Part shown: in pieces, positions 3,784 to 64,000 of the stretch
How the letters are laid out: the number at the start of each line of letters is the position of its first letter
How positions within the stretch are numbered: position 1 is the first letter of the stretch
Assembly: GCF_030384885.1 (NCBI RefSeq)
Contig: NZ_CP128613.1
Strand: one strand, 5' to 3'
DNA length: 64,000 nt
Source of the DNA: Escherichia coli
GTDB taxonomy: Bacteria; Pseudomonadota; Gammaproteobacteria; Enterobacterales; Enterobacteriaceae
Notes under the pieces: generated by a model
What the model was told of the DNA's origin: nothing
Databases searched by the model: none
The model's input: only the letters and a program-made list of their open reading frames with translations
Position numbers and translations under genes: made by a program

Positions 3784-5151
3784 TTAATCGCAGGCAACAA
3801 TCTTCATCGCCAGGCCACCACGAGAGGTTTCGCGGTACTTGGCATTCATATCTTTACCTGTTTCGTACATGGTTTCGATAACTTTATCGAGGCAGACACG
3901 TGGTTCGCTGGTACGGCGTAGCGCCATACGTGCAGCGTTCACCGCTTTTACTGCCGCAATGGCGTTACGCTCAATGCACGGTACCTGAACTTGTCCAGCA
4001 ACCGGGTCACAAGTCAGACCGAGGTTGTGTTCCATGGCGATTTCCGCCGCGATGCACACCTGCGCCGGGCTTGCGCCTAACAGTTCTGCCAGACCAGCTG
4101 CCGCCATAGAGCACGCCACGCCAACTTCACCCTGGCAACCCACTTCGGCACCAGAAATCGAGGCGTTCATCTTATAAAGAGAACCAATCGCGCTTGCTAC
4201 CAGCAGGTAACGAGCCAGTGAGTTAGCGTTCACTTCGCGGATAAACTTGTCGTAGTACGCCAGCACTGCCGGGATAATCCCGCACGCACCGTTAGTCGGC
4301 GCAGTCACCACGCGACCGCCCGCAGCGTTCTCTTCGTTCACTGCCAGCGCAAACATGTTGATCCAGTCAACAACGGCCATCGGATCAGTGGTGGTTTTAT
4401 CCTGGCTAACCAGCATCCGGCGCAGTGCCGCAGCGCGGCGTGGAACGCGCAGTTTGCCTGGCAAAACGCCTTCGGTGGCAATACCGCGCTCAATACCGCC
4501 ACGCATTACTTCCCAGACGTTCGCCAGGTGCTGTTCCAGTTCTTCTTTGCTGTGCAGCGCCAGTTCGTTTTTCATCATCAGACCAGAGAGTGACAGCCCG
4601 GTCTCCTGACAATGTTTTTGAAGATCGGCAGCGGAACTGTACGGATAAGGAACTTCAACCGGTGCGCTAACCTGCTGACCAAAATGTTCTTCATCAACGA
4701 TAAAGCCACCGCCGATAGAGTAGTAAGTCTGATTGTAAACGACTTTATCGCCCGCCAGTGCGGTAATGCGCATACCGTTTTCATGCAGAGAAAGGTTGTC
4801 GGCATGGAAGTTCATGCACTGATCAACCGGGAACTCCACTTCATGCTGACCATTTGCCAGCATCAGGCGACCATGAGTATTCACATCCTGAATAAAACCA
4901 GGGATGGAATCGATATCCACGGTATCCGGCAGGTTACCCGCCAGGCCCATAATAATGGCGATATCAGTGTGGTGGCCTTTACCAGTCAGAGAGAGCGAGC
5001 CGTACACGTCAACCACCACGCGGGTCACGTCTTTAAGCAGGTTACGGGCAATCAGATCGTCGGTAAATTGTTTACCCGCTTTCATTGGTCCAACGGTATG
5101 AGAACTGGAAGGGCCAATGCCGATTTTGAAAATATCGAATACGCTAATCAT
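3784..5151 (-). CDS. sdaB: L-serine dehydratase (Fe-S, single chain)
   Basis: 455-aa ORF MISVFDIFKIGIGPSSSHTVGPMKAGKQF...; immediately downstream of the serine transporter gene. Confidence 0.9.
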   Translation of the reverse strand: MISVFDIFKIGIGPSSSHTVGPMKAGKQFTDDLIARNLLKDVTRVVVDVYGSLSLTGKGHHTDIAIIMGLAGNLPDTVDIDSIPGFIQDVNTHGRLMLANGQHEVEFPVDQCMNFHADNLSLHENGMRITALAGDKVVYNQTYYSIGGGFIVDEEHFGQQVSAPVEVPYPYSSAADLQKHCQETGLSLSGLMMKNELALHSKEELEQHLANVWEVMRGGIERGIATEGVLPGKLRVPRRAAALRRMLVSQDKTTTDPMAVVDWINMFALAVNEENAAGGRVVTAPTNGACGIIPAVLAYYDKFIREVNANSLARYLLVASAIGSLYKMNASISGAEVGCQGEVGVACSMAAAGLAELLGASPAQVCIAAEIAMEHNLGLTCDPVAGQVQVPCIERNAIAAVKAVNAARMALRRTSEPRVCLDKVIETMYETGKDMNAKYRETSRGGLAMKIVACD

Positions 5152-15341: not shown

Positions 15342-16682
15342 ATGAGTTTTCAATTTACGACGCCTGTTGTTACTGAAATGCAGGTCATCCCGGTGGCGGG
15401 CCATGACAGTATGCTGATGAATCTGAGTGGTGCACACGCACCGTTCTTCACGCGTAATATTGTGATTATCAAAGATAATTCTGGTCACACTGGCGTAGGG
15501 GAAATTCCCGGCGGCGAGAAAATCCGTAAAACGCTGGAAGATGCAATTCCGCTGGTGGTGGGTAAAACGCTGGGTGAATACAAAAACGTTCTGACGCTGG
15601 TGCGTAATACATTTGCCGATCGTGATGCCGGCGGGCGCGGTTTGCAGACATTTGATTTGCGGACCACTATTCATGTGGTTACTGGGATAGAAGCGGCAAT
15701 GCTGGATCTGCTGGGGCAGCATCTGGGGGTTAACGTGGCATCGCTGCTGGGCGATGGTCAACAGCGTAGCGAAGTCGAAATGCTCGGTTATCTGTTCTTC
15801 GTCGGTAATCGCAAAGCCACACCGCTGCCGTATCAAAGCCAGCCGGATGACTCATGCGACTGGTATCGCCTGCGTCACGAAGAAGCGATGACGCCGGATG
15901 CGGTGGTGCGCCTGGCGGAAGCGGCATATGAAAAATATGGCTTCAACGATTTCAAACTGAAGGGCGGTGTACTGGCCGGAGAAGAAGAAGCCGAATCTAT
16001 TGTGGCACTGGCGCAACGCTTCCCGCAGGCGCGTATTACCCTCGATCCTAACGGTGCCTGGTCGCTGAACGAAGCGATTAAAATCGGTAAATACCTGAAA
16101 GGTTCGCTGGCTTATGCAGAAGATCCGTGTGGTGCGGAGCAAGGTTTCTCCGGGCGTGAAGTGATGGCAGAGTTCCGTCGCGCGACTGGCCTGCCGACCG
16201 CAACCAATATGATCGCCACTGACTGGCGGCAGATGGGCCATACGCTCTCGTTACAATCCGTTGATATCCCGCTGGCGGATCCGCATTTCTGGACGATGCA
16301 AGGTTCGGTACGTGTGGCGCAAATGTGCCATGAATTTGGCCTGACCTGGGGTTCACACTCTAACAACCACTTCGATATTTCCCTTGCGATGTTTACCCAT
16401 GTAGCCGCTGCTGCACCGGGTAAAATTACTGCTATTGATACGCACTGGATCTGGCAGGAAGGCAATCAGCGTCTGACCAAAGAACCGTTTGAGATCAAAG
16501 GCGGGCTGGTACAGGTGCCGCAAAAACCAGGATTGGGCGTAGAAATCGATATGGATCAGGTGATGAAAGCCCACGAGCTGTATCAGAAACACGGGCTTGG
16601 CGCGCGTGACGATGCAATGGGAATGCAGTATCTGATTCCTGGCTGGACGTTCGATAACAAGCGTCCGTGCATGGTGCGTTAA
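15342..16682 (+). CDS. gudD: Glucarate dehydratase
   Basis: ATG at 15342 gives [28 protein letters not shown]...; enolase-superfamily paralog of gudX. Confidence 0.9.
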
Positions 16683-21075: not shown

Positions 21076-23310
21076 ATGGTTGCGGTAAGAAGTGCACATA
21101 TAAATAAGGCTGGTGAATTTGATCCGGAAAAATGGATCGCAAGTCTGGGAATTACCAGCCAGAAGTCGTGTGAGTGCTTAGCCGAAACCTGGGCGTATTG
21201 TCTGCAGCAGACGCAGGGGCATCCGGATGCCAGTCTGTTATTGTGGCGTGGTGTTGAGATGGTGGAGATCCTCTCGACATTAAGTATGGACATTGACACG
21301 CTGCGGGCGGCGCTGCTGTTCCCTCTGGCGGATGCCAACGTAGTTAGCGAAGATGTGCTGCGTGAGAGCGTCGGTAAGTCGGTCGTTAACCTTATTCACG
21401 GCGTGCGTGATATGGCGGCGATCCGCCAGCTGAAAGCGACGCATACCGATTCTGTTTCCTCCGAACAGGTCGATAACGTTCGCCGGATGTTATTGGCGAT
21501 GGTCGATGATTTCCGCTGCGTGGTCATCAAACTGGCAGAGCGTATTGCTCATCTGCGCGAAGTAAAAGACGCGCCGGAAGATGAACGCGTACTGGCGGCA
21601 AAAGAGTGCACCAATATCTACGCGCCGTTGGCGAACCGTCTTGGGATTGGGCAACTGAAATGGGAGCTGGAAGATTACTGCTTCCGTTATCTCCACCCGA
21701 CCGAATACAAACGCATCGCAAAACTGCTGCATGAACGCCGTCTCGACCGCGAACACTATATCGAAGAGTTTGTCGGTCATCTGCGCGCTGAGATGAAAGC
21801 TGAAGGCGTTAAAGCTGAAGTGTATGGTCGTCCGAAACACATCTACAGTATCTGGCGCAAAATGCAGAAAAAGAACCTCGCCTTCGATGAGCTGTTTGAT
21901 GTGCGTGCGGTACGTATTGTCGCCGAGCGTTTACAGGATTGTTATGCCGCACTGGGGATAGTGCACACTCACTATCGCCACCTGCCGGATGAGTTTGACG
22001 ATTACGTTGCTAACCCGAAACCAAACGGTTATCAGTCTATTCATACCGTGGTTCTGGGGCCGGGTGGCAAAACCGTTGAGATCCAAATCCGCACCAAACA
22101 GATGCATGAAGATGCAGAGTTGGGTGTTGCTGCGCACTGGAAATATAAAGAAGGCGCGGCAGCTGGCGGCGCACGTTCGGGACATGAAGACCGAATTGCC
22201 TGGCTGCGTAAACTGATTGCGTGGCAGGAAGAGATGGCTGATTCCGGCGAAATGCTCGACGAAGTACGCAGCCAGGTCTTTGACGACCGGGTGTATGTCT
22301 TTACGCCGAAAGGTGATGTCGTTGATTTGCCTGCGGGATCAACGCCGCTGGACTTCGCTTACCACATCCACAGTGATGTCGGACACCGCTGCATCGGGGC
22401 AAAAATAGGCGGGCGCATTGTGCCGTTCACCTACCAGTTGCAGATGGGCGACCAGATTGAAATTATCACCCAGAAACAGCCGAACCCCAGCCGTGACTGG
22501 TTAAACCCAAACCTCGGTTACGTCACAACCAGCCGTGGGCGTTCGAAAATTCACGCCTGGTTCCGTAAACAGGATCGTGACAAAAATATTCTGGCAGGGC
22601 GGCAAATCCTTGACGACGAGCTGGAACATCTGGGGATCAGCCTGAAAGAAGCAGAAAAACATCTGCTGCCGCGTTACAACTTCAATGATGTCGACGAGTT
22701 GTTAGCAGCGATTGGTGGCGGGGATATCCGTCTCAATCAGATGGTGAACTTCCTGCAATCGCAATTTAATAAGCCGAGTGCCGAAGAGCAGGATGCCGCC
22801 GCGCTGAAGCAACTTCAGCAAAAAAGCTATACGCCGCAAAACCGCAGTAAAGATAACGGTCGTGTGGTGGTAGAAGGTGTCGGCAACCTGATGCACCACA
22901 TCGCGCGTTGCTGCCAGCCGATTCCTGGAGATGAGATTGTCGGCTTCATTACCCAGGGGCGCGGTATTTCAGTACACCGCGCCGATTGCGAACAACTGGC
23001 GGAACTGCGCTCCCATGCGCCGGAACGCATTGTTGACGCTGTATGGGGCGAGAGTTACTCCGCCGGATATTCGCTGGTGGTTCGTGTTCTGGCTAATGAT
23101 CGTAGTGGGTTGTTACGTGATATCACGACCATTCTCGCCAACGAGAAGGTGAACGTGCTTGGCGTTGCCAGCCGTAGCGACACCAAACAGCAACTGGCAA
23201 CCATCGACATGACTATTGAGATTTACAACCTGCAAGTGCTGGGCCGCGTGCTGGGTAAACTCAACCAGGTGCCGGATGTTATCGACGCACGTCGGTTGCA
23301 TGGGAATTAA
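21076..23310 (+). CDS. relA: GTP pyrophosphokinase ((p)ppGpp synthetase I)
   Basis: 744-aa ORF MVAVRSAHINKAGEFDPEKWIASLG... ending ...DVIDARRLHGN. Confidence 0.95.
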   Translation: MVAVRSAHINKAGEFDPEKWIASLGITSQKSCECLAETWAYCLQQTQGHPDASLLLWRGVEMVEILSTLSMDIDTLRAALLFPLADANVVSEDVLRESVGKSVVNLIHGVRDMAAIRQLKATHTDSVSSEQVDNVRRMLLAMVDDFRCVVIKLAERIAHLREVKDAPEDERVLAAKECTNIYAPLANRLGIGQLKWELEDYCFRYLHPTEYKRIAKLLHERRLDREHYIEEFVGHLRAEMKAEGVKAEVYGRPKHIYSIWRKMQKKNLAFDELFDVRAVRIVAERLQDCYAALGIVHTHYRHLPDEFDDYVANPKPNGYQSIHTVVLGPGGKTVEIQIRTKQMHEDAELGVAAHWKYKEGAAAGGARSGHEDRIAWLRKLIAWQEEMADSGEMLDEVRSQVFDDRVYVFTPKGDVVDLPAGSTPLDFAYHIHSDVGHRCIGAKIGGRIVPFTYQLQMGDQIEIITQKQPNPSRDWLNPNLGYVTTSRGRSKIHAWFRKQDRDKNILAGRQILDDELEHLGISLKEAEKHLLPRYNFNDVDELLAAIGGGDIRLNQMVNFLQSQFNKPSAEEQDAAALKQLQQKSYTPQNRSKDNGRVVVEGVGNLMHHIARCCQPIPGDEIVGFITQGRGISVHRADCEQLAELRSHAPERIVDAVWGESYSAGYSLVVRVLANDRSGLLRDITTILANEKVNVLGVASRSDTKQQLATIDMTIEIYNLQVLGRVLGKLNQVPDVIDARRLHGN

Positions 23311-23404
23311 TCTGCATAGCTGGATATGGCATCAGCTGTATCCAGCGGTATCTTTTACTCGAAGGTATTACACCTGACAGACCCGCAATTTTCAGGACAT
23401 TCTA

Positions 23405-24196
23405 ATGAATCAAATCGATCGTTTGCTCACTATTATGCAGCGTCTTCGCGACCCGGAAAATGGCTGCCCGTGGGATAAAGAGCAGACATTCGCCACCATT
23501 GCACCTTACACTCTTGAAGAAACCTACGAAGTGCTGGACGCCATCGCCCGTGAAGACTTTGACGATCTGCGCGGTGAACTCGGCGATCTGTTGTTCCAGG
23601 TGGTGTTTTACGCGCAAATGGCTCAGGAAGAGGGGCGCTTTGATTTTAATGATATCTGCGCCGCGATTAGCGATAAGCTAGAACGTCGCCATCCACATGT
23701 TTTTGCAGGCAGTTCTGCCGAAAACAGTAATGAAGTGCTTGCCCGTTGGGAGCAAATCAAAACCGAAGAGCGCGCGCAGAAAGCGCAGCATTCGGCGCTG
23801 GACGATATTCCTCGTAGTTTACCGGCTTTAATGCGTGCGCAAAAAATCCAGAAACGTTGCGCCAACGTTGGCTTTGACTGGACGACACTCGGCCCGGTAG
23901 TCGATAAGGTCTACGAAGAGATCGACGAGGTGATGTACGAGGCGCGGCAGGCTGTTGTCGACCAGGCTAAACTGGAGGAGGAAATGGGTGACCTGCTGTT
24001 TGCCACGGTCAATCTGGCTCGCCATTTAGGGACAAAAGCGGAAATCGCATTGCAAAAAGCGAACGAAAAATTCGAGCGTCGTTTTCGCGAAGTGGAGCGT
24101 ATTGTTGCCGCGCGTGGACTGGAAATGACAGGTGTTGACCTCGAAACAATGGAAGAAGTCTGGCAACAGGTAAAACGGCAGGAAATTGATCTCTAA
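23405..24196 (+). CDS. mazG: Nucleoside triphosphate pyrophosphohydrolase MazG
   Basis: 263-aa ORF MNQIDRLLTIMQRLRDPENGCPWDKEQTF...; starts only 94 nt after the relA stop. Confidence 0.93.
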   Translation: MNQIDRLLTIMQRLRDPENGCPWDKEQTFATIAPYTLEETYEVLDAIAREDFDDLRGELGDLLFQVVFYAQMAQEEGRFDFNDICAAISDKLERRHPHVFAGSSAENSNEVLARWEQIKTEERAQKAQHSALDDIPRSLPALMRAQKIQKRCANVGFDWTTLGPVVDKVYEEIDEVMYEARQAVVDQAKLEEEMGDLLFATVNLARHLGTKAEIALQKANEKFERRFREVERIVAARGLEMTGVDLETMEEVWQQVKRQEIDL

Positions 24197-24408
24197 GGGA
24201 ATTACGCGGTCAAGCGCGATTTGTGTCATTTTTTAAATGACAAGCGCTTGATTTGCGTCAAAAACATTTACCCCAAAGGGGCTATTTTCTCACTCCTGAT
24301 TTCAATGGTGCGCTGGCGAAGAGGAGGGATAATGAAAGTTTGTGGCACAGGTCATGTTCGGGTATACTGCTTTCCCGTCCTGGTTATTCCATCGTCTTTT
24401 CAACCTAA

Positions 24409-26061
<1,653 letters not shown>

Positions 26062-27506: not shown

Positions 27507-28412
27507 TTACCAGCGACCAGAAGCACCGCCACCGCCAGAAGAACCGCCACCTCCGCTAAATCCGCCGCCACTTGAGCCGCCACCGGAAGAGGATGAAGAA
27601 GAACCTTTTCTTGAAGCTCTTTCTTTACCGAGCGTCTTGTATTTGGCCCGTAGCTTTTTATTAACGATAAGCCAAAAGATAACCAGTGGTACGATCGCAA
27701 AAGGCGTTAACATACCGCAGGCAACGATTAAATTCGTCCATGGTCCTGGCTCGGCAACATAGAGGAATACCATCCCGTAAATTGCGGCAGTGAGAGTTAT
27801 CCAGGGTAAATTCGACGGATCGGTAAAAACAATAAAATATGAAAGCACTGCCAGCAATATAATTACAGCAAGCGAAAATGGGATAGGGGGATTGATACTG
27901 TAATAATTCCCCCTGCCTTCCGGTAATTCACCATTCATCAGAAGTGCGCCGATATTTTCGCTTGCCAGTGTTAACCCCCCCATCAGGTCATCACTTTTGA
28001 AAGCAGGGATTAATATATCACGGATAATCTTTGCCGCTTGCAGGTCGGTAACCACCCCTTCCAGCCCATAGCCGACTTCTATACGAACAGCATGATCTTC
28101 CCAGGCAACCAGAAGTAAAATGCCATCGTTTCGCTGCTTATCTCCCAGTTTCCAGCTATCAAAAACGCGTGTTGCATATTGTTCAATGGTATCGTCTCCG
28201 GTGGATGGCACTATTAATACGGCAACCTGTGCCCGTGTTTTTTGTGTAATATCCTGCAGCTGTTGTGTCAGTGATTGTTGTTCAGACATGCTTAAGGTAC
28301 CAGTAATATCGGTCACCTGTTGGCGCAGCTCCGGCACAGCAATTTGCTGGGCAAGCACAGGAAGGCACCATAAAGTGAGTAGAAAAAGGATTATACGCAT
28401 AACGATCACCAA
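27507..28412 (-). CDS. TPM-domain membrane protein (YgcG-like), paralog 3
   Basis: 301-aa ORF with signal peptide, TPM/DUF477-like region (DITGTLS...VAVLIVPSTGDDTIEQYATRVFDSWKLGDK), transmembrane segments and a Gly/Ser-rich tail ending GGGGASGRW; start overlaps the stop of the upstream paralog. Confidence 0.8.
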   Translation of the reverse strand: MVIVMRIILFLLTLWCLPVLAQQIAVPELRQQVTDITGTLSMSEQQSLTQQLQDITQKTRAQVAVLIVPSTGDDTIEQYATRVFDSWKLGDKQRNDGILLLVAWEDHAVRIEVGYGLEGVVTDLQAAKIIRDILIPAFKSDDLMGGLTLASENIGALLMNGELPEGRGNYYSINPPIPFSLAVIILLAVLSYFIVFTDPSNLPWITLTAAIYGMVFLYVAEPGPWTNLIVACGMLTPFAIVPLVIFWLIVNKKLRAKYKTLGKERASRKGSSSSSSGGGSSGGGFSGGGGSSGGGGASGRW

Positions 28413-29554
28413 CGGTCGGATGAACCGCCACCGCCAGAAGAACCGCCGCCACCGCGGAAAGAGTTTTTCGACGAAGAACGAGAATGAGCATTACGATTCC
28501 CCGTTTTCTTGTTGCTTTTATGCCCTGATCCCAGTTTAAGATTGCCAGTAAATTTGGCCACAATGATCAGCAGAACGATGCCAGCAATGGTTATTGGGCC
28601 GATAAAATGATCAATTAGCCCAATAATTGTTGAGATGAACGCAATATCTTTATTACTGGCGAATACCAGGCACCATCCCACAACAATTATCAGCAGCACG
28701 ACAAACAATGAATTTCGTCCTGATTCACGAACCTGCGGAGCCTTCTTTTGTTTTTTCACTTTAGCGTTTTTATTTTGGGGGGCCAGCATCATAGGAAATG
28801 CGCGGCATATATTAAAAACTACCGCGAGACGCTGCCAGCAGATTGCTGCGAAAAATAAACTAAAACAAACGACCGATACCCGTCGAATGATGACATCGTT
28901 CTGAAAGCAGAAAAACCAGACCATAGGGGTAATCATCGATATCATCCATATGCCAGGCCCTGGATGGGTGGTAAATCGCCAGAGGACAACGATGGCAACG
29001 ATCATCAGCAGTGTCCAGGCAAGACATGGCAGAGAGCGTTGCGGATTAGCAAACAGATGATTGGCTAAAGCATCCAAAGGGCTAAGATTCGCTTTTATAT
29101 AGGTAAACTGTGCGATGCCTTCAATTCCCTGCGTTAACCCGGAGAAGAGATTATTTTTTTTGAATTCCGGTTGCATATGGTAATGAACAATTTGCGCAGC
29201 TTGTTCCGGTGGCAGCATCTCTTCCAGTCCATGCCCAATCTTCATTGACGCCAGCCCTTCCGGCCAAACGACGAGAATTAAGATACCTTCGCCGTACCGC
29301 TTCTCTCCAACAGGTTTCCAGTGATATAACCCGTAGCTTTGCGAGGCTGCAAGTTTAATGTCTTTACCCCCAGTGGTCGGCGTTACCAACACGGCAACCT
29401 GAAAGTGGTTTTGCTGCTCGAGAGTCTGTAATTGTTGAGTTAAAGCAGTTTGTTCTTCTGTCGTTAATGTCCCGGTTAAGTCAGTTACTGAAGGCAATTG
29501 TTCAGCGAATGCCTGGAAACCACATAGCATCAGAAGTAAGAGAAAAATACGCAT
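28406..29554 (-). CDS. TPM-domain membrane protein, paralog 2 (polytopic, most divergent)
   Basis: 382-aa ORF with signal peptide MRIFLLLLMLCGFQAFA, TPM-like region, several hydrophobic segments, tail ...GGGGSSGGGGSSDRW. Confidence 0.75.
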   Translation of the reverse strand: MRIFLLLLMLCGFQAFAEQLPSVTDLTGTLTTEEQTALTQQLQTLEQQNHFQVAVLVTPTTGGKDIKLAASQSYGLYHWKPVGEKRYGEGILILVVWPEGLASMKIGHGLEEMLPPEQAAQIVHYHMQPEFKKNNLFSGLTQGIEGIAQFTYIKANLSPLDALANHLFANPQRSLPCLAWTLLMIVAIVVLWRFTTHPGPGIWMISMITPMVWFFCFQNDVIIRRVSVVCFSLFFAAICWQRLAVVFNICRAFPMMLAPQNKNAKVKKQKKAPQVRESGRNSLFVVLLIIVVGWCLVFASNKDIAFISTIIGLIDHFIGPITIAGIVLLIIVAKFTGNLKLGSGHKSNKKTGNRNAHSRSSSKNSFRGGGGSSGGGGSSDRW

Positions 29555-29568
29555 TTCAATTCCTTTTG

Positions 29569-30507
29569 TTACCAGCGCCCGGAGGCGCCACCGCCGCCAG
29601 ATGAACCGCCGCCGCCGCTGAAATTATCATTGTCAAAAGAGGATGAAGAGGAAGATGACGACGATGATGAAGAACGCCTGGAGGCCGAGTTACTTCTTTC
29701 GTAATGTGACGGTCGGTTGGCACTGCGCATCGAATCCCGAACCTTTTTGCCGAAGGGGGTAAAAGCGATGGCGACAGCCAGGAACGGTGTGGCGAAGCAG
29801 AGTAATGTTGCGAGTACTCCCCAGCTTCCGCCGAAACCTGCTATAGGTAAAACAAAGGCCAGTACAATAGCTGTGAAGCAAATTAGTCCCAGCGTTTTGA
29901 AATATCCTCTGGCGGAAATAAAGGTCAGTACTATTGCCCAGACTAACAAAGCCCACCAACCGTTAAAGGGCAAAGGGTGATCGGTCGGTGTTATCGTTGC
30001 TAAATTATTCCCCGTCAGACGATTATCAATATCGCTTATTCCCTTTTGCAAGCCGCCAGCCAGGTCGCCATTTTTAAATGCCGGAATAATACTGTTGCGA
30101 ATAATTTTCCCGGACTGCGCATCCGTAATAACGCCTTCCAGTCCGTAACCGATTTCAATACGCACGGCCTGATCCTGCCAGGCGACTAACAGTAGAATGC
30201 CATCATCGCGGTCTTTATCACCTGGTTTCCAGCTATCGAATACCCGCGTAGCGTACTGCTCGATGGTTTCATCGCCCGTTGTTTCAACCACTAACACGAC
30301 CAGTTGTGCGTGGCTTTTTTGCGTCAGCTCTTTAATCTGATTGGTCAACGTATTTACTTCATCGTTCGTCAATTTGCCGGTTAAGTCATTCACATACCTG
30401 GGTGATTCAGGCACTGGAATTTGTATGGCAAACACAGATGAACAAAAGAAAGCCATAAGGAAGATAAAATTTCGCACAGGACTTCCTCGCTTAATGAGCA
30501 TTAGCAT
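29569..30507 (-). CDS. TPM-domain membrane protein, paralog 1
   Basis: 312-aa ORF with TPM-like region (DLTGKLT...VVLVVETTGDETIEQYATRVFDSWKPGDK), Ser-rich tract, tail ...GGGGSSGGGGASGRW; start overlaps the lemA stop by 17 nt. Confidence 0.8.
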   Translation of the reverse strand: MLMLIKRGSPVRNFIFLMAFFCSSVFAIQIPVPESPRYVNDLTGKLTNDEVNTLTNQIKELTQKSHAQLVVLVVETTGDETIEQYATRVFDSWKPGDKDRDDGILLLVAWQDQAVRIEIGYGLEGVITDAQSGKIIRNSIIPAFKNGDLAGGLQKGISDIDNRLTGNNLATITPTDHPLPFNGWWALLVWAIVLTFISARGYFKTLGLICFTAIVLAFVLPIAGFGGSWGVLATLLCFATPFLAVAIAFTPFGKKVRDSMRSANRPSHYERSNSASRRSSSSSSSSSSSSFDNDNFSGGGGSSGGGGASGRW

Positions 30508-31093
30508 TCTGGCTAAAATCTATTGTTGGGGCTTTACTCACAGCGGCGACATCATCCGGCAAATAATTTTTCTTCGGTGTGTAATCCATGACTTTTGCGG
30601 TTAACACTGCGGGGAATTTGCGGATAGTGACATTATATTGTTCGATGGCTTTAATATATCTTCCTCGCGCAACGGCAATTCGATTTTCACTTCCTTCGAG
30701 CTGTACCATCAAATTTTGATAGAGTTCCTGGGCCTTTAACTCAGGGTAACGTTCACTAATTATCGTTAACTGACCGAGAGTGCGAGACACCTGCGCCTGA
30801 GCTTGTTGCCAGGTTTGTAATTTTTGTTCATCTCCCGGAGTTTGCTGAAGAGCGCTACTGGCGCGATTAGCCTGACTACGTGCCAATGTTACGGCTTCCA
30901 GTACCTCTTGTTCATGGCTGGAATAACCTTTAATACTGGCGACAAGATTAGGAATAAGATCGGCGCGACGTTGATATTGATTTAATACCTCAGACCAGGA
31001 AGCGTTAACCTGCTCATCATAGGTTTGAATATCGTTATATCCACAGCCTGATAAATTGAAAATAAATATAATTACGATGAATATTCTGAGCAT
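30491..31093 (-). CDS. lemA: LemA-family lipoprotein
   Basis: 200-aa ORF with lipoprotein signal/lipobox (IFNLSGCG) and LemA-like coiled region; first gene of a four-gene minus-strand operon. Confidence 0.8.
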   Translation of the reverse strand: MLRIFIVIIFIFNLSGCGYNDIQTYDEQVNASWSEVLNQYQRRADLIPNLVASIKGYSSHEQEVLEAVTLARSQANRASSALQQTPGDEQKLQTWQQAQAQVSRTLGQLTIISERYPELKAQELYQNLMVQLEGSENRIAVARGRYIKAIEQYNVTIRKFPAVLTAKVMDYTPKKNYLPDDVAAVSKAPTIDFSQNANAH

Positions 31094-31265: not shown

Positions 31266-31937
31266 ATGCAGTACCCGATTAACGAGATGTTCCAGACCCT
31301 GCAAGGTGAGGGTTACTTTACCGGCGTCCCCGCCATTTTTATTCGTTTACAGGGATGCCCGGTCGGCTGTGCCTGGTGCGACACCAAACACACCTGGGAA
31401 AAGCTTGAGGATCGGGAAGTCTCCCTTTTCAGCATTCTGGCGAAGACCAAAGAGAGTGATAAGTGGGGGGCGGCGAGCAGTGAAGATTTGCTGGCTGTCA
31501 TTGGTCGTCAGGGATACACCGCGCGGCATGTGGTGATTACGGGTGGTGAGCCTTGCATTCATGATTTGCTGCCACTGACTGACCTGCTCGAAAAGAACGG
31601 TTTTAGCTGCCAGATCGAAACCAGCGGTACTCATGAAGTACGCTGCACGCCGAATACCTGGGTTACCGTATCGCCAAAGCTGAACATGCGCGGCGGCTAT
31701 GAAGTGTTGTCACAGGCACTGGAACGAGCCAACGAAATCAAGCATCCAGTGGGACGCGTACGTGATATTGAAGCACTGGATGAACTACTGGCAACGCTGA
31801 CCGATGATAAACCACGAGTCATTGCACTGCAGCCAATTAGCCAGAAGGACGATGCCACACGTTTGTGCATTGAAACCTGTATTGCGCGTAACTGGCGTTT
31901 ATCGATGCAAACACATAAATATTTAAATATTGCCTGA
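31266..31937 (+). CDS. queE: 7-carboxy-7-deazaguanine synthase (radical SAM)
   Basis: 223-aa ORF MQYPINEMFQTLQGEGYFTGVPAIFIRLQGCPVGCAWCDTKHTW with radical-SAM Cys cluster. Confidence 0.9.
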   Translation: MQYPINEMFQTLQGEGYFTGVPAIFIRLQGCPVGCAWCDTKHTWEKLEDREVSLFSILAKTKESDKWGAASSEDLLAVIGRQGYTARHVVITGGEPCIHDLLPLTDLLEKNGFSCQIETSGTHEVRCTPNTWVTVSPKLNMRGGYEVLSQALERANEIKHPVGRVRDIEALDELLATLTDDKPRVIALQPISQKDDATRLCIETCIARNWRLSMQTHKYLNIA

Positions 31938-32275
31938 TTAAACATTTATAAGCGTTATAAATGGGTGGAACCTGTAAAGACTTCCACTCATTTATATTCT
32001 TTGTCGCCTCTGAAAAACCTCCATTTTGCTCATCCTGGACTAATCATTATCATTCTCTACAAATTCTATGGCGTTAATTTTTCGTTGGAGTGAAAATTAT
32101 TGCGGTAAAGTTTGGTAGATTTTAGTGGGTATAGAGTTATCTAAAATATTTACTTTTTTAATCAATGGATTAAGTGTTCTTTAACATAATGGATGTGTTG
32201 TTTGTGTGATCCTGTAAAGTTGGTAGATTGTGACTGGCTTAAAAAATCATTAATTAATAATAGGTTATGTTTAGA

Positions 32276-33219
32276 GAGTTCCCCGCGCCAGCGGGGATAA
32301 ACCGCAAAAACATGCCTCTAATCGCCTCATATCGCCGAGTTCCCCGCGCCAGCGGGGATAAACCGTGAATTCGCGGTCGTCGGTAGTTATTGTCACAGAG
32401 TTCCCCGCGCCAGCGGGGATAAACCGTTTATATCCCCGATACGCACGACGCGGACCGGGAGTTCCCCGCGCCAGCGGGGATAAACCGCCCCGCCCTCCTG
32501 CACCACGATCGCGCCCTCAGAGTTCCCCGCGCCAGCGGGGATAAACCGCCTTACGCCTGCAACCTCGTGCCACAGTTCATGAGTTCCCCGCGCCAGCGGG
32601 GATAAACCGGTTTTCAGTCCAGCGGCAGCTACGAGGAATCGGAGTTCCCCGCGCCAGCGGGGATAAACCGGATGGTTGAGGGTTATATGATGCCAGTTTA
32701 CGGAGTTCCCCGCGCCAGCGGGGATAAACCGGCAAAAACCGGGCAATCGCAAAAAGGCGTAATGAGTTCCCCGCGCCAGCGGGGATAAACCGACGCTGAT
32801 TATTCCGTACCAGTATTGTGAGGCGAGTTCCCCGCGCCAGCGGGGATAAACCGGATGACTCTGTGGCCTGGGTGGTTACCTGTCTGAGTTCCCCGCGCCA
32901 GCGGGGATAAACCGCCCTGCCCGTTTTGCGGGAGTTCCAATGTTGAGAGTTCCCCGCGCCAGCGGGGATAAACCGCATTATTTTTAGACGGTTGCGGGAT
33001 TGGATTAGAGTTCCCCGCGCCAGCGGGGATAAACCGCGGCCTGGTCGATATCTCGCTGCTAGCGTCAAGAGTTCCCCGCGCCAGCGGGGATAAACCGTAA
33101 GATGATCTCACGGAATTGAACGAACTACGGAGTTCCCCGCGCCAGCGGGGATAAACCGGACACAGAGCGCTGCTATAGCGCCTATGCCAAGAGTTCCCCG
33201 CACCAGCGGGAATAAACCA
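32276..33219 (+). CRISPR. Type I-E CRISPR array: 16 repeats, 15 spacers of 32 nt
   Basis: 29-bp repeat GAGTTCCCCGCGCCAGCGGGGATAAACCG at a strict 61-bp period, starting 32276, 32337, 32398 ... 33191; the last repeat is degenerate (gagttccccgcaccagcgggaataaacca); AT-rich leader upstream at about 31940-32275. Confidence 0.97.
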
Positions 33220-33690
33220 CCATATAACCCGTTATCTCTTTCTCAAGTTTTTATATTAGCAGTACTCGTATTAAGCAACATATCCACGTAACACCTCATG
33301 TTCAAAATAGCTCTCCATATATGAGAAGTTCACAATTATCGATACAAAAAATCAAATTTAATTAAAGTGTTAGTTGTATGATACTTAAATCATTAAGAAA
33401 TTATCATATATTATTTTTTTAATATTGAATTGATGTTTGTTAATTTTTTCTTTAGGATAATGGTTTGTTTTTTAAGCTTATTATTCATTGATTAAGTAAT
33501 AAATCTGGAAGTTTGTCTTTGTTTTGAGGCTAATGAGTGATTTTACATAATCGCCTCTATACGCTGTTGATGAATAGTTCTTATGAATAAAGATATCCAG
33601 TTCATACTTTAAGTGAAAATTGATAAAGTACGATTCGCATAGTCTTTTATTCTAAGGACATCGATTGTAGTTAATATTCCTTGTAAAAAC

Positions 33691-33763
33691 AGGGATAAAC
33701 CGGACTTGTTATAATTCTTGATGTTGTCGAACTTATGTTCCCCGCGCCAGCGGGGATAACCAT
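33691..33763 (+). CRISPR. Degenerate orphan mini-array (partial repeat, one spacer, degenerate repeat)
   Basis: cagggataaaccg + roughly 33-nt spacer + gttccccgcgccagcggggataacc; lies about 470 bp beyond the main array, after an AT-rich leader-like stretch. Confidence 0.7.
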
Positions 33764-33808: not shown

Positions 33809-35287
33809 TTACGCATTCGACCAGCTCTGGATCGAATCTGCATTCCCCAACTCACCATGCATCACTTCATACGATTTTTTCAGGATCACATCAGTGTGTT
33901 TGGTTAGGTCTTTGAAAATGCCTTTATTCATCGCGTCGTAGCGTTTGGCATTGCTCTCAATCGGCATAAAGATATCTTTCACGCGAACCATTTTGTCGAC
34001 AGCCGTTGCGTAATCCGGGTATAGCCCCAGACCTACCGCCGTATTAATCGCTGCCCCCAGGCTTGCACAACCGTTAATGGCGTTACGTCGTGCCGGAAGG
34101 TTGAACACGTCGGCAAAAATTTGCATAAACAGATCGCTGTTCGAACCGCCGCCAGTAATGATCACATGTTTCGCAAAGTGATTCATTTCATGACACATAT
34201 TGTCGTAATTGTTCTTCAGCGTCAGCGCCACGCTTTCCAGTATCGAACGATATATCCATGCGTAATCCATGCTGGAATCAAAGCCGATCATAATCCCGCG
34301 TTTGTACGGTTCCCACGGATTGGTCAGCCAGTCCAGCACCGTCATCAGACCATTACAGCCAGGCGGCACACAAGAAGCTTTTTTGTTGAGCAAATCTTCC
34401 GGTGAAAGATCCTGTGCCCTGGCATCCTGAATTAACGACTCGCCTAACATGTCGCGAAGCCAGCTCACCGTCCACATGCCTTTGCGAATACCGTAACCTT
34501 CATACAGCAAGGTTTGCGGAATAGAAGACATAATCGGCCAGTACGCTACCGGATCTTTCGGCAGTACTTTGCCGTTCATCATCAACGCGATGTAAGTGCC
34601 AAGAGAAATTACCGCCGTTTCATCATCCAGTAACCCGGCTCCCAGTGCTTCTACCGGTTTATCACTGGTGGTACAAACAACTGGCAGCCCAGCCGGGAAA
34701 TGTGTCGCCAGCGCGGCTTGTGGTGTGATATGCCCAAGAACAGTGCCCGGCATTTGCACATCAAAAAGCATCTGTCGGGGAATATTAAACTTCTCCATTA
34801 CCGCGGTATCTTCGCTCCATGCCCAGGTCTTATAATCCACCGGCCACTGACCAAAATAGTTGGCGATATTGTCTTTAAACTCGCCGGTTAAACGGTGTGT
34901 CAGATAACCTGAAAAAGAGGTGGCATATGCCACATCAGGATTGGTGTGCTCGTAGGGACGTGTTACGCGTGCATCCTGCCAGCTAATCAACGGCGCAGCT
35001 GGCGTGCCATCGGCTTTCAATAACGCACGGCAGCAACGGATAGATCCCAGACCAATGCCGACAATATCTTCTTTATTCCCGGCAAACTGGCTCATCAAAT
35101 CGTGACCAGCAAAACATAATGATGCCCATAAATCATCGTCAGGATGTTCTGCGGTATCGGCATCTGGAGTGTGCATCGGTTGTAATAAGCCTTTGCCTTC
35201 GCAAACCACGTTACCTTCCAGATCGTACATCACCACTTTTGTGCTCTGACTTCCGCCATCAATCCCTATGATGTATTTTTTCGACAT
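33809..35287 (-). CDS. ygcE: FGGY-family carbohydrate kinase
   Basis: 492-aa ORF MSKKYIIGIDGGSQSTKVVMYDLEG... with FGGY N- and C-terminal signatures. Confidence 0.82.
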   Translation of the reverse strand: MSKKYIIGIDGGSQSTKVVMYDLEGNVVCEGKGLLQPMHTPDADTAEHPDDDLWASLCFAGHDLMSQFAGNKEDIVGIGLGSIRCCRALLKADGTPAAPLISWQDARVTRPYEHTNPDVAYATSFSGYLTHRLTGEFKDNIANYFGQWPVDYKTWAWSEDTAVMEKFNIPRQMLFDVQMPGTVLGHITPQAALATHFPAGLPVVCTTSDKPVEALGAGLLDDETAVISLGTYIALMMNGKVLPKDPVAYWPIMSSIPQTLLYEGYGIRKGMWTVSWLRDMLGESLIQDARAQDLSPEDLLNKKASCVPPGCNGLMTVLDWLTNPWEPYKRGIMIGFDSSMDYAWIYRSILESVALTLKNNYDNMCHEMNHFAKHVIITGGGSNSDLFMQIFADVFNLPARRNAINGCASLGAAINTAVGLGLYPDYATAVDKMVRVKDIFMPIESNAKRYDAMNKGIFKDLTKHTDVILKKSYEVMHGELGNADSIQSWSNA

Positions 35288-49865: not shown

Positions 49866-50018
49866 ATGCTGACAAAATATGCCCTTGTGGCAATCATCGT
49901 ACTGTGTTGTACAGTACTGGGATTCACGCTGATGGTAGGCGACTCGTTGTGTGAGTTGAGTATCAGAGAACGTGGTATGGAGTTTAAGGCAGTTCTCGCT
50001 TACGAATCGAAGAAGTAG
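49866..50018 (+). CDS. hokX: Hok/Gef-family type I toxin (small membrane peptide)
   Basis: ATG at 49866 after GGGAGG gives [50 protein letters not shown] (50 aa); Hok-type TM helix plus the LCE...AYE motif; symbol by position only. Confidence 0.75.
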
Positions 50019-50256
50019 CCACCACGCGGGGGTAAAACCCCGCGTATTGAATTGTGATGGTTTGGTCTCCTGCACCCTTTTTTTCATTTATATTGTTTTT
50101 GTGAATATTATGCCTGTGTTTATTATTTATATATATCACAGATGAAAATCATTGAATTATTCATAATGTGAATATTTTATTGAACGATATATATCACAGA
50201 TAATTTTTAATATATGCGTAAATATCCTTTAAGTTTTACTGAAGGATAAAAACATT

Positions 50257-51690
50257 GTGACTTTCTTTGATTTCTGGGGAAAAACCCGACGTGGCGAGAA
50301 AGAGGGTGGCGACGATTATCACCTTCTTTGCTGGCATTCGCTGGATGTAGCCGCGATAGGCTATTTAATGGTCAAAAACAACTGTTTCGGGCTGGCTGAC
50401 TATTTTCGTCAATTAGGTTTCGCTGACACGGATCAGGCAGCACAATTTTTCGCCTGGTTGTTGTGCTGGCACGATACTGGAAAATTTGCCCGCTCATTTC
50501 AGCAACTTTACCTGCACCCACAACTCAAGGTTCCGGAAGGCGCAAGAAAGAATTACGAAAAGATCTCTCATTCAACGCTGGGTTACTGGTTGTGGCATCA
50601 TTATTTAATTGAATGTGAAGAGTTGCTTCCTTCATCTTCACTCTCTTTGCGCAAACTTAAACGAGTAATAGATATGTGGATGCCCGTGACGACCGGGCAT
50701 CATGGTCGGCCTCCTGACCGTATCGATGAACTGGACAACTTTCTGCCTGAAGACAAAGCTGCCGCACGGGATTTTCTCCTTGAAATCAAGGTACTGTTTC
50801 CGCTCATCGAGATCCCTACATTCTGGGATGATGACGAGGGCGTTGAACTTATAAAACATTTTTCCTGGTATATCTCTGCAACCGTCGTACTCGCAGACTG
50901 GACGGGATCGTCAACGCGGTTTTTTCCACGCGTTGCACAGGCAATGGATATTAAAGATTACTGGCAGAAGGCTTTAGTTCAGGCTCAAAACGCATTAACC
51001 GTCTTTCCCCCAAAAGCAGAAAGCGCGCCTTTCACTGGAATTAATACGCTGTTTCCTTTTATTGAGAACCCAACACCGTTACAGCAAAAGGTGTTGGATC
51101 TGGATATCAGCCAGCCAGGACCACAGTTGTTTATTCTGGAAGATGTGACTGGCGCAGGTAAAACAGAAGCGGCGCTTATCCTGGCGCACAGGTTGATGTC
51201 TGCGGGGAAAGCACAGGGTTTGTTTTTTGGTTTGCCAACAATGGCAACGGCCAATGCCATGTACGATAGGCTGGTAAAAACCTGGCTTGCTTTCTATTCG
51301 CCACAATCCCGCCCCAGCCTGGTGCTGGCACACAGCGCTCGTTCGCTAATGGATCGCTTTAACGCATCGCTGTGGTCTGGTGATTTTGTGGGGTCAGAAG
51401 AACCGGATGAACAAGCGTTCAGTCAGGGATGTGCGGCCTGGTTTGCTGACAGTAACAAGAAGGCGTTGCTGGCTGAAATTGGCGTCGGCACGCTGGATCA
51501 GGCGATGATGGCGGTGATGCCGTTCAAACATAATAATCTGCGGCTTCTGGGGCTGAGTAACAAAATCCTGCTAGCCGATGAGATCCACGCCTGTGACGCT
51601 TATATGTCGTGCATTCTTGAAGGGCTGATCGAGCGGCAGGCGCGTGGCGGAAACAGCGTTATTTTGCTTTCTGCTACGTTGCCGGGGTAG
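50257..51690 (+). pseudogene. cas3: cas3 (type I-E), 5' fragment: HD nuclease plus helicase motifs I-III, premature stop
   Basis: 477-aa ORF with Walker A (VTGAGKTEAA), DExH (LLADEIHACD) and SAT motifs, stopping right after SATLPG; full Cas3 is roughly 890 aa. The start codon is non-ATG (likely GTG); my own count places it at 50258, one nucleotide off the track. Confidence 0.85.
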
Positions 51691-51746: not shown

Positions 51747-52304
51747 GTGGTTTGCGCCAGCCGTAACCCGCGCTGGGCACGGGATTATCACACGGTCCAG
51801 ATGCCAAAAGAGGTGCGTAAAGCGCGTTATTTCAGCCGTCGCGAAGAGTTGAGCGCCCCTGATCTTCTAAGCGCGATTATCTCCCGGCGCGACTACTACA
51901 CCGATGCCTGGTGGATGGTGGCCGTGGCAACAACAGCTGATGCGCCTTACAGCCTCGAACAGTTGCAGGAAGGTTTACGCCATCCGGTTTTTCCGCTTTA
52001 TCTGGGGCGAAAAAGCCATCCGCTGGCATTACCCCTTGCGCCGTTACTGCTTGAAGGTAACGCGTCTGATGCCTTACGTAACGCATACCAACAGTATCAG
52101 GATCGTTTCCACGAACTGAAAGTCTCACTCCCGAAACTTCAGGATGAATGCTGGTGGGAAGGGGAGCACGATGGCCTGGTCTCGAGCAAAATATTACGCC
52201 GCCGGGATGTTCCTTTAAATCGTCAGCAGTGGCTGTTTGGGGAACGCACCGTCAATCAGGGGCCGTGGCTCAGCAAGGAGGAACCATGTACCTCTCAAGA
52301 ATAA
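51747..52304 (+). pseudogene. casD: casD (cas5e) 3' remnant
   Basis: Frame contains RDYHTV ... PLYLGRKSHPLALPL, matching the C-terminal two-thirds of Cas5e as I recall it; no N-terminal region; its 3' end overlaps the casE start as in intact operons. Confidence 0.65.
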
Positions 52305-52932
52305 CCTTACATACCGGCCAGCTTTCGCCTGCGCAGTTACTGCATCTGGTGGATCGCGGTGAATATGTGATGCATCAGTGGCTGTGGGATCTTTTTCCTG
52401 GCGGCAAAGAAAGGCAATTTCTTTATCGTCGGGAAGAACTCCAGGGCGCGTTTCGCTTTTTTGTCCTGTCGCAGGAACGCCCGGCGGAAAGTGAAATGTT
52501 CACCATCGAATGCCGGTCATTTGCGCCGGAGCTGCGTACCGGACAATCCCTTTGTTTCAACCTGCGGGCGAATCCAACAGTCTGTAAAGCGGGTAAGCGC
52601 CACGATCTGCTGATGGAGGCGAAACGGCAGGTGAGGGGGCAGGCGGAAGGAAGTGATGTCTGGTTGCATCAACAACAGGCGGCGCTGGGCTGGCTGGCTG
52701 CGCAGGGAGAGAGAAGTGGTTTTACACTGCTGGATACCTCGGTCGATGCCTACCGACAACAGCAACTGCGGCGGGAAAATGCCCGGCAACTGATCCAGTT
52801 CAGTAGCGTGGATTATACGGGGATGCTGACGGTCACCGAGCCAGGGTTATTTCTGCAACGTCTCTGCCTGGGGTATGGCAAAAGCCGGGCGTTCGGCTGT
52901 GGTCTGATGTTAATCAAACCCGGAGCAGAGGC

Positions 52933-52936
<4 letters not shown>
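52286..52936 (+). CDS. casE: CRISPR pre-crRNA endoribonuclease Cas6e (CasE)
   Basis: ATG at about 52286 after AAGGAGG gives MYLSRITLHTGQLSPAQLLHLVDRG...GCGLMLIKP. Confidence 0.85.
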
Positions 52937-54146
<1,210 letters not shown>

Positions 54147-54240: not shown

Positions 54241-54574
54241 GTGTGTTCCCCGCGCCAGCGGGGATAAACCGAATACCCAGCGCTATTTCGAGCGCGAGAG
54301 AGTGTGTTCCCCGCGCCAGCGGGGATAAACCGGAAATTTCGGAAATTAAATCCGCTCGCGATCGGTGTTCCCCGCGCCAGCGGGGATAAACCCCATGGCA
54401 GGAAGAGCGGATGATTTAGGGGTAAGTGTTCCCCGCGCCAGCGGGGATAAACCGAAGCCGGATCACATTTTCTTAGCGGAGCTGACGTGTTCCCCGCGCC
54501 AGCGGGGATAAACCGCTCTCGGTTCTGGGGTACTGTTACCCATAACTGAGCTCCCCCGCGTCAGCGGGGGAACT
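54241..54574 (+). CRISPR. Type I-E CRISPR array beside cas2: 6 repeats, 5 spacers of 32 nt
   Basis: GTGTTCCCCGCGCCAGCGGGGATAAACCG at a 61-bp period, starting 54241, 54302, 54363, 54424, 54485; terminal degenerate repeat at 54546 (gagctcccccgcgtcagcgggggaactcc); AT-rich leader 54147-54240. Confidence 0.95.
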
Positions 54575-54597
54575 CCCAACTCCCATTTTCAAACGCC

Positions 54598-55635
54598 TCA
54601 TGACGCCTTCGCCAGTTCCTTCACCAGCGGTAGCATTATCCGCATAACGTCACGGCAGCGACGTTCTATTCTTCCAGGAAGCGCCTTATCAATATGCTGT
54701 TGATTATCAAGCCTTACATCATGCCAGCTATTTCCCGCCGGGAAGGCCGGTGTTTTTGCGCGTTGCTGATAACCATCCTTATTTCCAAGATTCCAGTTGG
54801 TCGCCTCCACCGAAAGTACCGCAATACCGGCTTTGTCGAAAACTTCTGCATCGTTACAACACCCAGTGCCTTTCGGATAGTTTTTATTCAAACCTGGATT
54901 TGTTGTCGCTGCAATCCCATGATTACGCGCAATTGCCAGCGCTCGATCACGGGTTAATTTCCTGACAGCCTCTGGTGTATTTACACCACTATTAAAATAC
55001 AATTTATCGCCAACAATTAAGTTATCGAGATTAATCACCAGCAGCGTATTTTTCTTTTCAGTATCGCTCATGCGCTTGAGTAAATTCTCAGCGCCTAATT
55101 TCCCTTCTTCTTCTCCACTGGTTGCCACAAAACGAATACCATACTCGGTAGGCGTATTTTTCAGACGTTCAGCCAGTTCCAGCATGACACCTAAACCTGC
55201 GGCGTTATCATCCATTCCTTGTAACGTCAGCCCGCCGAGATTGGCATCGGCGTCGGCATCGCTCAGTGGAGCGTACGTATCAAGATGCGCCATAATGATG
55301 ATCTGCTGCGGCGCTTTGCCTTCATGAGCGGCAATCACCGTACTTCCCGTCACGTTGTGCCAGTTTTTGCGGTTATCGCGGGCGGTGTAAATATATCGGC
55401 TATTAAATGTCCGAATATCACTGCGATAACCCATCTGTTGAAACTGTTGGCGAATATAATCGGCAGATAACATTTCTGCAGGAGTTCCGGTCATGCGTCC
55501 CGGAAAGAAAGTAGCAATATGTCGTGCCTGTGTATTAGCAAAATCACCAGGTTTAGGTGACGAGGCGTGTACGGGGAGAATAAAGCATACGCCGAGCGCC
55601 AGGGCAGCGGTACGGTGGCGCAATGCGGAAAACAT
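54598..55635 (-). CDS. iap: Alkaline phosphatase isozyme conversion aminopeptidase (M28 family)
   Basis: 345-aa ORF MFSALRHRTAALALGVCFILPVHASSPKPGDF... with signal peptide. Confidence 0.88.
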   Translation of the reverse strand: MFSALRHRTAALALGVCFILPVHASSPKPGDFANTQARHIATFFPGRMTGTPAEMLSADYIRQQFQQMGYRSDIRTFNSRYIYTARDNRKNWHNVTGSTVIAAHEGKAPQQIIIMAHLDTYAPLSDADADANLGGLTLQGMDDNAAGLGVMLELAERLKNTPTEYGIRFVATSGEEEGKLGAENLLKRMSDTEKKNTLLVINLDNLIVGDKLYFNSGVNTPEAVRKLTRDRALAIARNHGIAATTNPGLNKNYPKGTGCCNDAEVFDKAGIAVLSVEATNWNLGNKDGYQQRAKTPAFPAGNSWHDVRLDNQQHIDKALPGRIERRCRDVMRIMLPLVKELAKAS

Positions 55636-63463: not shown

Positions 63464-64000
63464 ATGAGCGCGGGAAGCCCAAAATTCACCGTTCGCCGCA
63501 TTGCGGCTTTGTCACTGGTTTCGCTATGGCTGGCAGGCTGTTCTGACACTTCAAATCCACCGGCACCGGTCAGCTCCGTTAATGGCAATGCGTCTGCAAA
63601 CACCAATTCTGGTATGTTGATTACGCCGCCGCCGAAAATGGGTACGACGTCTACAACGCAGCAACCGCAAATTCAGCCGGTACAGCAGCCACAAATTCAA
63701 TCTGCACAACAACCGCAAATCCAGCCGGTGCAGCCAGTTGCTCAGCCGCCGGTACAGATGGAAAACGGACGCATCGTCTACAACCGTCAGTATGGGAACA
63801 TTCCGAAAGGCAGTTATAGCGGCAGTACATACACCGTGAAAAAAGGCGACACACTTTTCTATATCGCCTGGATTACTGGCAATGATTTCCGTGACCTTGC
63901 TCAGCGCAACAATATTCAGGCGCCATACGCGCTGAATGTAGGTCAGACCTTACAGGTGGGTAATGCTTCCGGTACGCCAATCACTGGCGGAAATGCCATT
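63464..64000 (+). CDS. nlpD: Murein hydrolase activator lipoprotein NlpD, N-terminal part (gene runs off the window end)
   Basis: ATG at 63464 gives [35 protein letters not shown]... with a Q/P-rich repeat region; frame open to the window end. Confidence 0.85.

Follow-up and report, generated by a model that had tools for sequence, protein, structure and literature searches.

The CRISPR-II array of an Escherichia cryptic clade I strain with an apparently very recent 4.6-kb deletion in its type I-E cas operon

The array at positions 32276-33219 of the 64,000-nucleotide stretch of DNA analysed here (the window) is the type I-E CRISPR-II array of E. coli, also designated CRISPR2.3, and is not the array that adjoins the cas genes. 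It is very probably a standard CRISPR-II array of a once-complete type I-E system that underwent a 4.6-kb deletion very recently, and the array would be intact for lack of time. Both the kind of locus and its state are already known, and the supposed puzzle of an intact array dissolves. The lineage is that of strain 2013C-4282, a stx1 STEC lineage of Escherichia cryptic clade I; 2013C-4282 itself has been reported as cryptic clade I with stx1 (Okuno et al., PMC10100065).

The array and its chromosomal setting

The array contains 15 exact copies of the 29-nt repeat GAGTTCCCCGCGCCAGCGGGGATAAACCG, placed from 32276 to 33130 with a strict 61-bp period, and a 16th, leader-distal copy at 33191-33219 that carries three mismatches to the same sequence. 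The repeats enclose 15 spacers of exactly 32 nt each, the first of which (s1) is caaaaacatgcctctaatcgcctcatatcgcc. No match to the repeat occurred in 100 shuffles of the window. The repeat has a palindromic core and folds to a 7-bp hairpin (-15.1 kcal/mol, z = -3.6), and the RefSeq CRISPR feature in the near-identical strain 2013C-4282 has the same coordinates as the array. An earlier note, made from the letters of this DNA, had called a 15-spacer type I-E array free of decay, with a strict period, uniform spacers and degeneracy confined to the leader-distal repeat; each of these points was borne out, and the s1 sequence that it gave matches ours. A search of the array region with Rfam at the gathering threshold returned no family. 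A simple scan for sigma-70 promoters and terminators picked up no site in the leader and nowhere exceeded the shuffle expectation; it is uninformative either way. The features that surround the array are listed below.

31266-31937, + strand: queE (ygcF), whose position upstream defines the locus as CRISPR-II (NCBIfam TIGR04322, 368 bits; RefSeq annotation)
31938-32275, + strand: CRISPR2.3 leader, AT-rich (alignment with K-12 and Z0117EC0005)
32276-33219, + strand: CRISPR2.3 (CRISPR-II) array, with 15 spacers (32 nt) between 16 repeats (29 nt) (RefSeq CRISPR feature)
33220-33691, no strand: AT-rich 0.5-kb stretch between CRISPR2.3 and CRISPR2.2, the same in K-12 and Z0117EC0005
33692-33763, + strand: CRISPR2.2 remnant, with a partial repeat (33692-33702), a 32-nt spacer (33703-33734) and a repeat (33735-33763)
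33809-35287, - strand: ygcE, coding for an FGGY-family kinase, which bounds CRISPR-II downstream (profile match; RefSeq annotation)

The array was identified as CRISPR-II because it is flanked by queE and ygcE, has the K-12 leader, is accompanied by the CRISPR2.2 remnant, and coexists with a second array beside cas2 and iap, an arrangement that agrees with the published layout, in which CRISPR2.3 is followed by 0.5 kb and then by CRISPR2.2 (PMC3903273; PMC10910852). The last 97 nt of the leader (32179-32275), which adjoin the first repeat, are identical to the K-12 CRISPR-II leader, and an alignment of the 338-nt leader and first repeat with K-12 and Z0117EC0005 had a mean column identity of 98% over 368 columns. 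The description of the leader as intact was thus upheld by the 97 nt next to repeat 1. Leader 2.3 is reported to be similar in all E. coli strains, including those without cas-E genes (Almendros et al. 2014, PMC3903273). The CRISPR2.2 remnant, with a conserved spacer shared by about 4,000 E. coli genomes, had been missed by the earlier note. The framing of that note, which set the array against the damage to the cas operon, was not supported in this respect: the array that adjoins cas is another one (54243-54576), also missed, and about 17-21 kb separate CRISPR-II from the cas genes (cas3 start at 50257, cas2 end at 54146).

Comparison with CRISPR-II of K-12 showed the same chromosomal locus between ygcE and ygcF (queE), the same 32-nt spacers and 61-bp period, and the same AT-rich 0.5 kb followed by a CRISPR2.2 remnant. 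The repeats agree at 28 of 29 positions and differ at position 2 (GAG in the window, GTG in K-12). The window has 15 spacers and K-12 has six; s8 is K-12 spacer 1, whereas the rest differ, and the terminal repeat carries three mismatches in the window as against one in K-12. Unlike the window, K-12 has a complete cas operon.

Several other features of the region were recorded. Upstream of queE (27507-31093), genes of the LemA family and with TPM domains, of which one carries the annotation of a partial pseudogene, take the place that ygcG and yqcG have in K-12; Z0117EC0005 has the same LemA/TPM arrangement. In this lineage relA directly precedes mazG with a 94-bp gap (21076-24196), and the mazEF toxin-antitoxin pair, which lies between the two genes on the K-12 map, is absent. 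A 24-bp tandem repeat at 63659-63734 (3.2 copies, 69% matches) lies inside nlpD and is probably a repetitive linker of the protein.

The cas locus and the 4,628-bp deletion

Over 64 kb, the window differs from 2013C-4282 (NZ_CP027579.1) by 10 substitutions and a single 4,628-bp gap. The features of the cas region are as follows.

49866-50018, + strand: hok/gef-family toxin gene, between cysH and cas3 (RefSeq annotation)
50257-51690, + strand: cas3, cut short after 474 of its 885 aa (HD nuclease and the beginning of the helicase), with 3 new codons and a stop beyond the junction
51680-51681, no strand: junction of the deletion, at which 4,628 bp of the 2013C-4282 sequence are missing, with 2-bp microhomology (TG) and no IS element
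51801-52304, + strand: C-terminal fragment of casD (cas5e), matching only positions 70-228 of the 230 of profile TIGR01868 (gene call)
52286-52936, + strand: casE (cas6e), intact (TIGR01907, 277 bits, full profile; DNA identical to 2013C-4282)
52933-53856, + strand: cas1e, intact (TIGR03638, 380 bits, above cut-off)
53853-54146, + strand: cas2e, intact (TIGR01873, 132 bits, above cut-off)
54243-54576, + strand: CRISPR-I (CRISPR2.1) array, cas-adjacent, with 5 spacers, GTG-type repeats and a degenerate terminal repeat (54548-54576)
54598-55635, - strand: iap, flank of CRISPR-I (NF007568, 704 bits)

The cas3 reading frame that begins with GTG at 50257 ends after 477 codons, compared to a full length of 885 aa in the sister strain, and its score against the Cas3 profile NF007248 (261, with profile positions 6-481 of 878 covered) falls below the cut-off of 569. 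The deleted segment comprised Cas3 residues 475-885 (about 408 C-terminal aa), the cas3-casA intergenic region, casA, casB, casC and the start of casD. The loss of the C-terminal half of cas3, which the earlier note had claimed, was confirmed by the stop at 477 of 885 aa. Its claim that Cascade had been lost held for casA, casB and casC, which are absent, and for casD, of which a fragment is left, but casE, cas1 and cas2 remain and the whole system is not gone. With cse1, cse2 and cas7 absent, cas5 truncated and Cas3 short of full length, interference is genetically abolished. The adaptation module is complete, in that cas1 and cas2 are intact and both leaders are identical to those of the sister strain with intact cas genes. 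CRISPR-II is also not an orphan array without cas genes, as casE, cas1 and cas2 lie 19-21 kb away. The presence of the hok/gef gene fits the cas-E1 arrangement; hok/sok has been found in every arrangement but cas-E2 (PMC3903273).

In the PGAP annotation, cas3 is flagged as "frameshifted" in 2013C-4282 (22212-24912 of the retrieved locus) and in EC42405 (1534-4234 of the retrieved locus). The flag looks like a start-site issue (start region in the window, 50214-50260): the 885-aa Cas3 reading frame of 2013C-4282 is uninterrupted from the GTG and aligned from profile position 6. The idea that interference was already dead before the deletion was rejected as unsupported on these grounds, and because hundreds of assemblies have a gene call for the 885-aa frame.

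Loss of cas-E genes is frequent in E. coli and has occurred by recurrent deletion (PMC3903273), and the persistence of an array without cas-E is a state already described in this species (PMC3903273). In the cas-E-less strains of Almendros et al. (2014, PMC3903273), as in the window, an array and the conserved leader 2.3 are still present although the interference module is not. Unlike in those strains, the loss in the window is partial, with casE, cas1, cas2 and the CRISPR-I leader and array kept; the deletion is a clean one with 2-bp microhomology, whereas IS-mediated recombination has been described for the major arrangements (PMC3903273), and it is far more recent. Internal deletions are found in other isolates too. 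[quoted passage not shown] The junctions differ, and these are independent events; the TUM12355 deletion therefore indicates that loss of Cascade genes by internal deletion is recurrent. Strains of the BL21 type (B strains) also have an array and leader 2.3 without cas-E genes.

The deletion is carried by other public sequences. The 477-aa Cas3 specific to the junction was called on 8 public contigs (a 362-kb contig of GCA_036346665.1, Logan ERR12948940 and SRR34489103, among others), and the three of them that were retrieved showed 100% identity with the window. That the gap is an artefact of assembly or sequencing, in a strain whose system is in fact complete, would agree with the full operon in 2013C-4282, the closest complete genome, and with the absence of the 51680/51681 junction from all 5,426 complete E. 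coli genomes. The 8 contigs, however, come from independent sources, and the junction contains only the 2 bp of microhomology and no repeats that could collapse. The artefact was rejected because the same junction recurs on these contigs, and we regard it as extremely unlikely.

The deletion is rare and very recent. The intact 885-aa Cas3 was indexed in 458 blocks of public assemblies, as against the 8 contigs with the truncated form. Across 16 kb of junction flank GCA_025956185.1 shows no mismatch to the window, yet it possesses the whole operon; in 2013C-4282, which also has the complete operon, the two arrays, their leaders and casE-cas1-cas2 do not differ from the window at a single base. 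The recency of the deletion is deduced from these two genomes, the clone-mate without a single difference and the relative with identical arrays. The CRISPR-II array is also identical throughout in GCA_038513185.1. The array would show no decay because no time has elapsed since the deletion, and its condition is consequently not evidence that it is being kept. The contrast between an intact array and a decayed cas operon, which the earlier note took to be meaningful, holds no information when the deletion is so young.

The same comparison bears on the proposal that the array has been under active selection after the loss of interference, through another crRNA function or effector or through use of casE-cas1-cas2. 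Such selection would account for the intact state of casE, cas1, cas2, both leaders and both arrays, and Dion et al. argue that an inert system would make the long arrays of E. coli difficult to account for (PMC10910852). A clone-mate with zero SNPs over 16 kb and a full operon leaves no time for selection to have acted, however, so that intactness is uninformative, and the window contains no further effector genes. We consider this proposal very unlikely, and retain the reading of a standard array that has simply had no time to decay.

Ancestry and sources of the spacers

The earlier note had proposed that the spacers could be used for strain typing and that their order be compared with that of other strains. 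When this comparison was made, the two oldest spacers at the trailer end, s14 and s15, and the degenerate last repeat were found in about 10 other genomes, e.g. Z0117EC0005, whose leader-side spacers are different. Such sharing is the usual pattern of polarised growth, as expected. Among complete E. coli genomes, 2013C-4282 is the only one with spacers s1-s7 and s10-s13 as such, which makes the array a specific lineage marker; its use for typing was thereby supported, the spacer set being specific to the clade I STEC lineage. In Z0117EC0005 the leader-proximal repeat of CRISPR-II (2167-2195 of the retrieved locus) is also degenerate (GAGTTCCCCACGTCAGCGGGGATAAACCT), which might impair integration of new spacers there.

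Four spacers recur in whole or in part in other arrays. Spacer s8 is the leader-proximal spacer of K-12 CRISPR-II and is found in roughly 870 genomes, s9 is the leader-proximal spacer of the otherwise unrelated array of PEC1011, and a variant of s6 with three mismatches is found in CRISPR-I of SE11. A spacer in the type I-F array of Rb-50 (tRNA-Ser/infA; about 1795-1830 of the retrieved locus) has 29 nt in common with s5, in the same orientation, so that the source of s5 would have been sampled independently by another CRISPR type in a different strain. In these four cases the same protospacers were captured more than once or arrays exchanged spacers.

The search of phage and plasmid databases that the earlier note had recommended was carried out with all 15 spacers against 50,697 phage and 72,556 plasmid records (E<=10). 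Only 21-31-nt matches at chance level were obtained (to phages or plasmids of Microbacterium, Streptomyces, Pseudomonas and similar hosts), and no sequenced phage or plasmid was accepted as a source. Protospacers were identified elsewhere for 6 of the 15 spacers (s3, s6, s7, s8, s9 and s12). Among complete E. coli genomes, five of these matched one ~44-kb prophage that adjoins ttcA in STEC384 and STEC379, which is also matched by the newest spacer of CRISPR-I, and s12 matched a P2-like contig of IMG/VR. The matches are listed below.

s3: 1 mismatch, PAM AAG, terL of the STEC384/379 prophage
s6: 2 mismatches, PAM AAG, portal gene of the STEC384/379 prophage
s7: 4 mismatches, PAM AAG, start of gam of the STEC384/379 prophage
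s8: 3 mismatches, PAM AAA (AAG if the register is moved by 1 nt), baseplate hub gene of the STEC384/379 prophage
s9: 1 mismatch, PAM AAA, baseplate plug-like gene of the STEC384/379 prophage
s12: 2 mismatches, PAM ATG, P2 GpU-family tail gene of a P2-like IMG/VR contig
newest CRISPR-I spacer (s1 of that array): 1 mismatch, PAM ATG, recE of the STEC384/379 prophage

The chance expectation for the matches to the STEC384 prophage is 3e-7. The six spacers of both arrays that fall on it have the PAMs AAG (three), ATG (one) and AAA (two), and the probability of at least three AAG among six is 1.3e-5; the six CRISPR-II spacers with protospacers give the same tally (AAG three times, ATG once and AAA twice). 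From these matches the CRISPR-II spacers appear to be real immune memory, and the sources of the 6 spacers are all temperate phages. The exposure history that the earlier note had hoped to read from the spacers can therefore be inferred for 6 of 15. No source was found for s1, s2, s4, s5, s10, s11, s13, s14 and s15 in the phage, plasmid, E. coli genome and IMG/VR searches; for s1, s2, s10, s11, s13, s14 and s15 the IMG/VR scans were of exact 24-28-mers, which allow zero mismatches and give weak negatives.

The STEC384/379 prophage combines early genes of lambdoid type with a tail module of myovirus type, and was found in 2 of 5,426 complete genomes; it is absent from the clade I lineage of the window. 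Its TerL is at most ~70% identical to that of any sequenced phage, the nearest being Klebsiella temperate phages and Pectobacterium ZF40. That four consecutive spacers (s6-s9) and s3 derive from one prophage family is consistent with a burst of adaptation, which was possibly primed. On the STEC384 prophage one strand holds five of the 6 protospacers, a bias that is not significant (two-sided binomial p ~0.2, our own estimate), and strand bias was dropped as evidence of priming.

Two further matches were noted in other arrays. The oldest CRISPR-I spacer (54516-54547) matches ~110-kb phage-like plasmids with four mismatches and an AAG PAM, e.g. pM160133_p3 (4000-4031 of the retrieved locus), which has genes for a phage methyltransferase, RNase HI and an exonuclease; there are 229 matching places on E. 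coli plasmids. Spacer 4 of K-12 CRISPR-II (1686-1717 of the retrieved locus) matches the STEC384 prophage at 32 of 32 positions (16380-16411 of the retrieved locus), and the match is flanked by ATC, not by a PAM of the AAG type.

The earlier note had drawn attention to any spacer that might match the host chromosome. No such spacer was found: neither array had an off-array match of ~22 nt or more in 2013C-4282, the closest complete genome, searched as the sister of the strains with the deletion, and no off-array match was present within the window at <=8 mismatches. The spacer record is similar to that of Dion et al. (2024, PMC10910852), where protospacers were likewise in temperate phages and prophages of other E. 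coli and not in isolated virulent phages, and where self-targeting of resident prophages was likewise absent. That study sequenced CRISPR1, and the same pattern is seen here in CRISPR-II of a clade I strain.

These results also speak to whether the deletion was selected because interference had become harmful, e.g. through autoimmunity against a new prophage or the chromosome. The targeting of temperate phages or phage-plasmids by 6 of 15 CRISPR-II spacers and at least two CRISPR-I spacers would be in line with such a cost, as would the independent cas3-cas5e deletion in TUM12355 and the frequent loss of cas-E in E. coli (PMC3903273). The lack of off-array matches in the sister genome and in the window argues against it, as does the rarity of the targeted prophage and its absence from the lineage, and we hold it to be highly improbable.

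Origin, remaining activities and use of the locus

According to the preferred reading, that of a once-complete type I-E system with a very recent deletion, the array would have been built while the system was complete, with Cas1-Cas2 adding spacers at the leader end, mostly from temperate phages and with AAG or ATG PAMs. A 4.6-kb deletion by way of the 2-bp microhomology would then have fused codon 474 of cas3 to the middle of casD. The cas3-casA intergenic region in K-12 holds the H-NS-silenced casA promoter. In the window casD'-casE-cas1-cas2 lies directly behind the truncated cas3 reading frame, and because the intergenic region is gone, casE-cas1-cas2 may now be driven from the cas3 promoter. 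Transcription from the leader, processing by CasE and adaptation by Cas1-Cas2 possibly remain, and the array itself would now be a neutral relic and lineage marker. A stronger version, in which this is a natural locus able to adapt but not to interfere, with crRNA processing and with self spacers acquired without autoimmunity, so that the arrays act as a passive recorder, is in our judgement very improbable.

The value of a standard CRISPR-II array with a young deletion nearby lies mainly in strain typing: the array marks the clade I STEC lineage, and the 51680/51681 junction marks a sub-clone. The locus also offers a clean natural case of a very young deletion of Cascade and cas3, and the clone-mate with the intact operon completes an isogenic pair. 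Comparison of its two members, of which one has Cascade and full-length Cas3 and the other lacks them, could address the role of the array and casE-cas1-cas2 in the absence of interference. The spacers add one more case in which the type I-E memories of E. coli appear to be directed mostly against temperate phages of which databases contain few examples.
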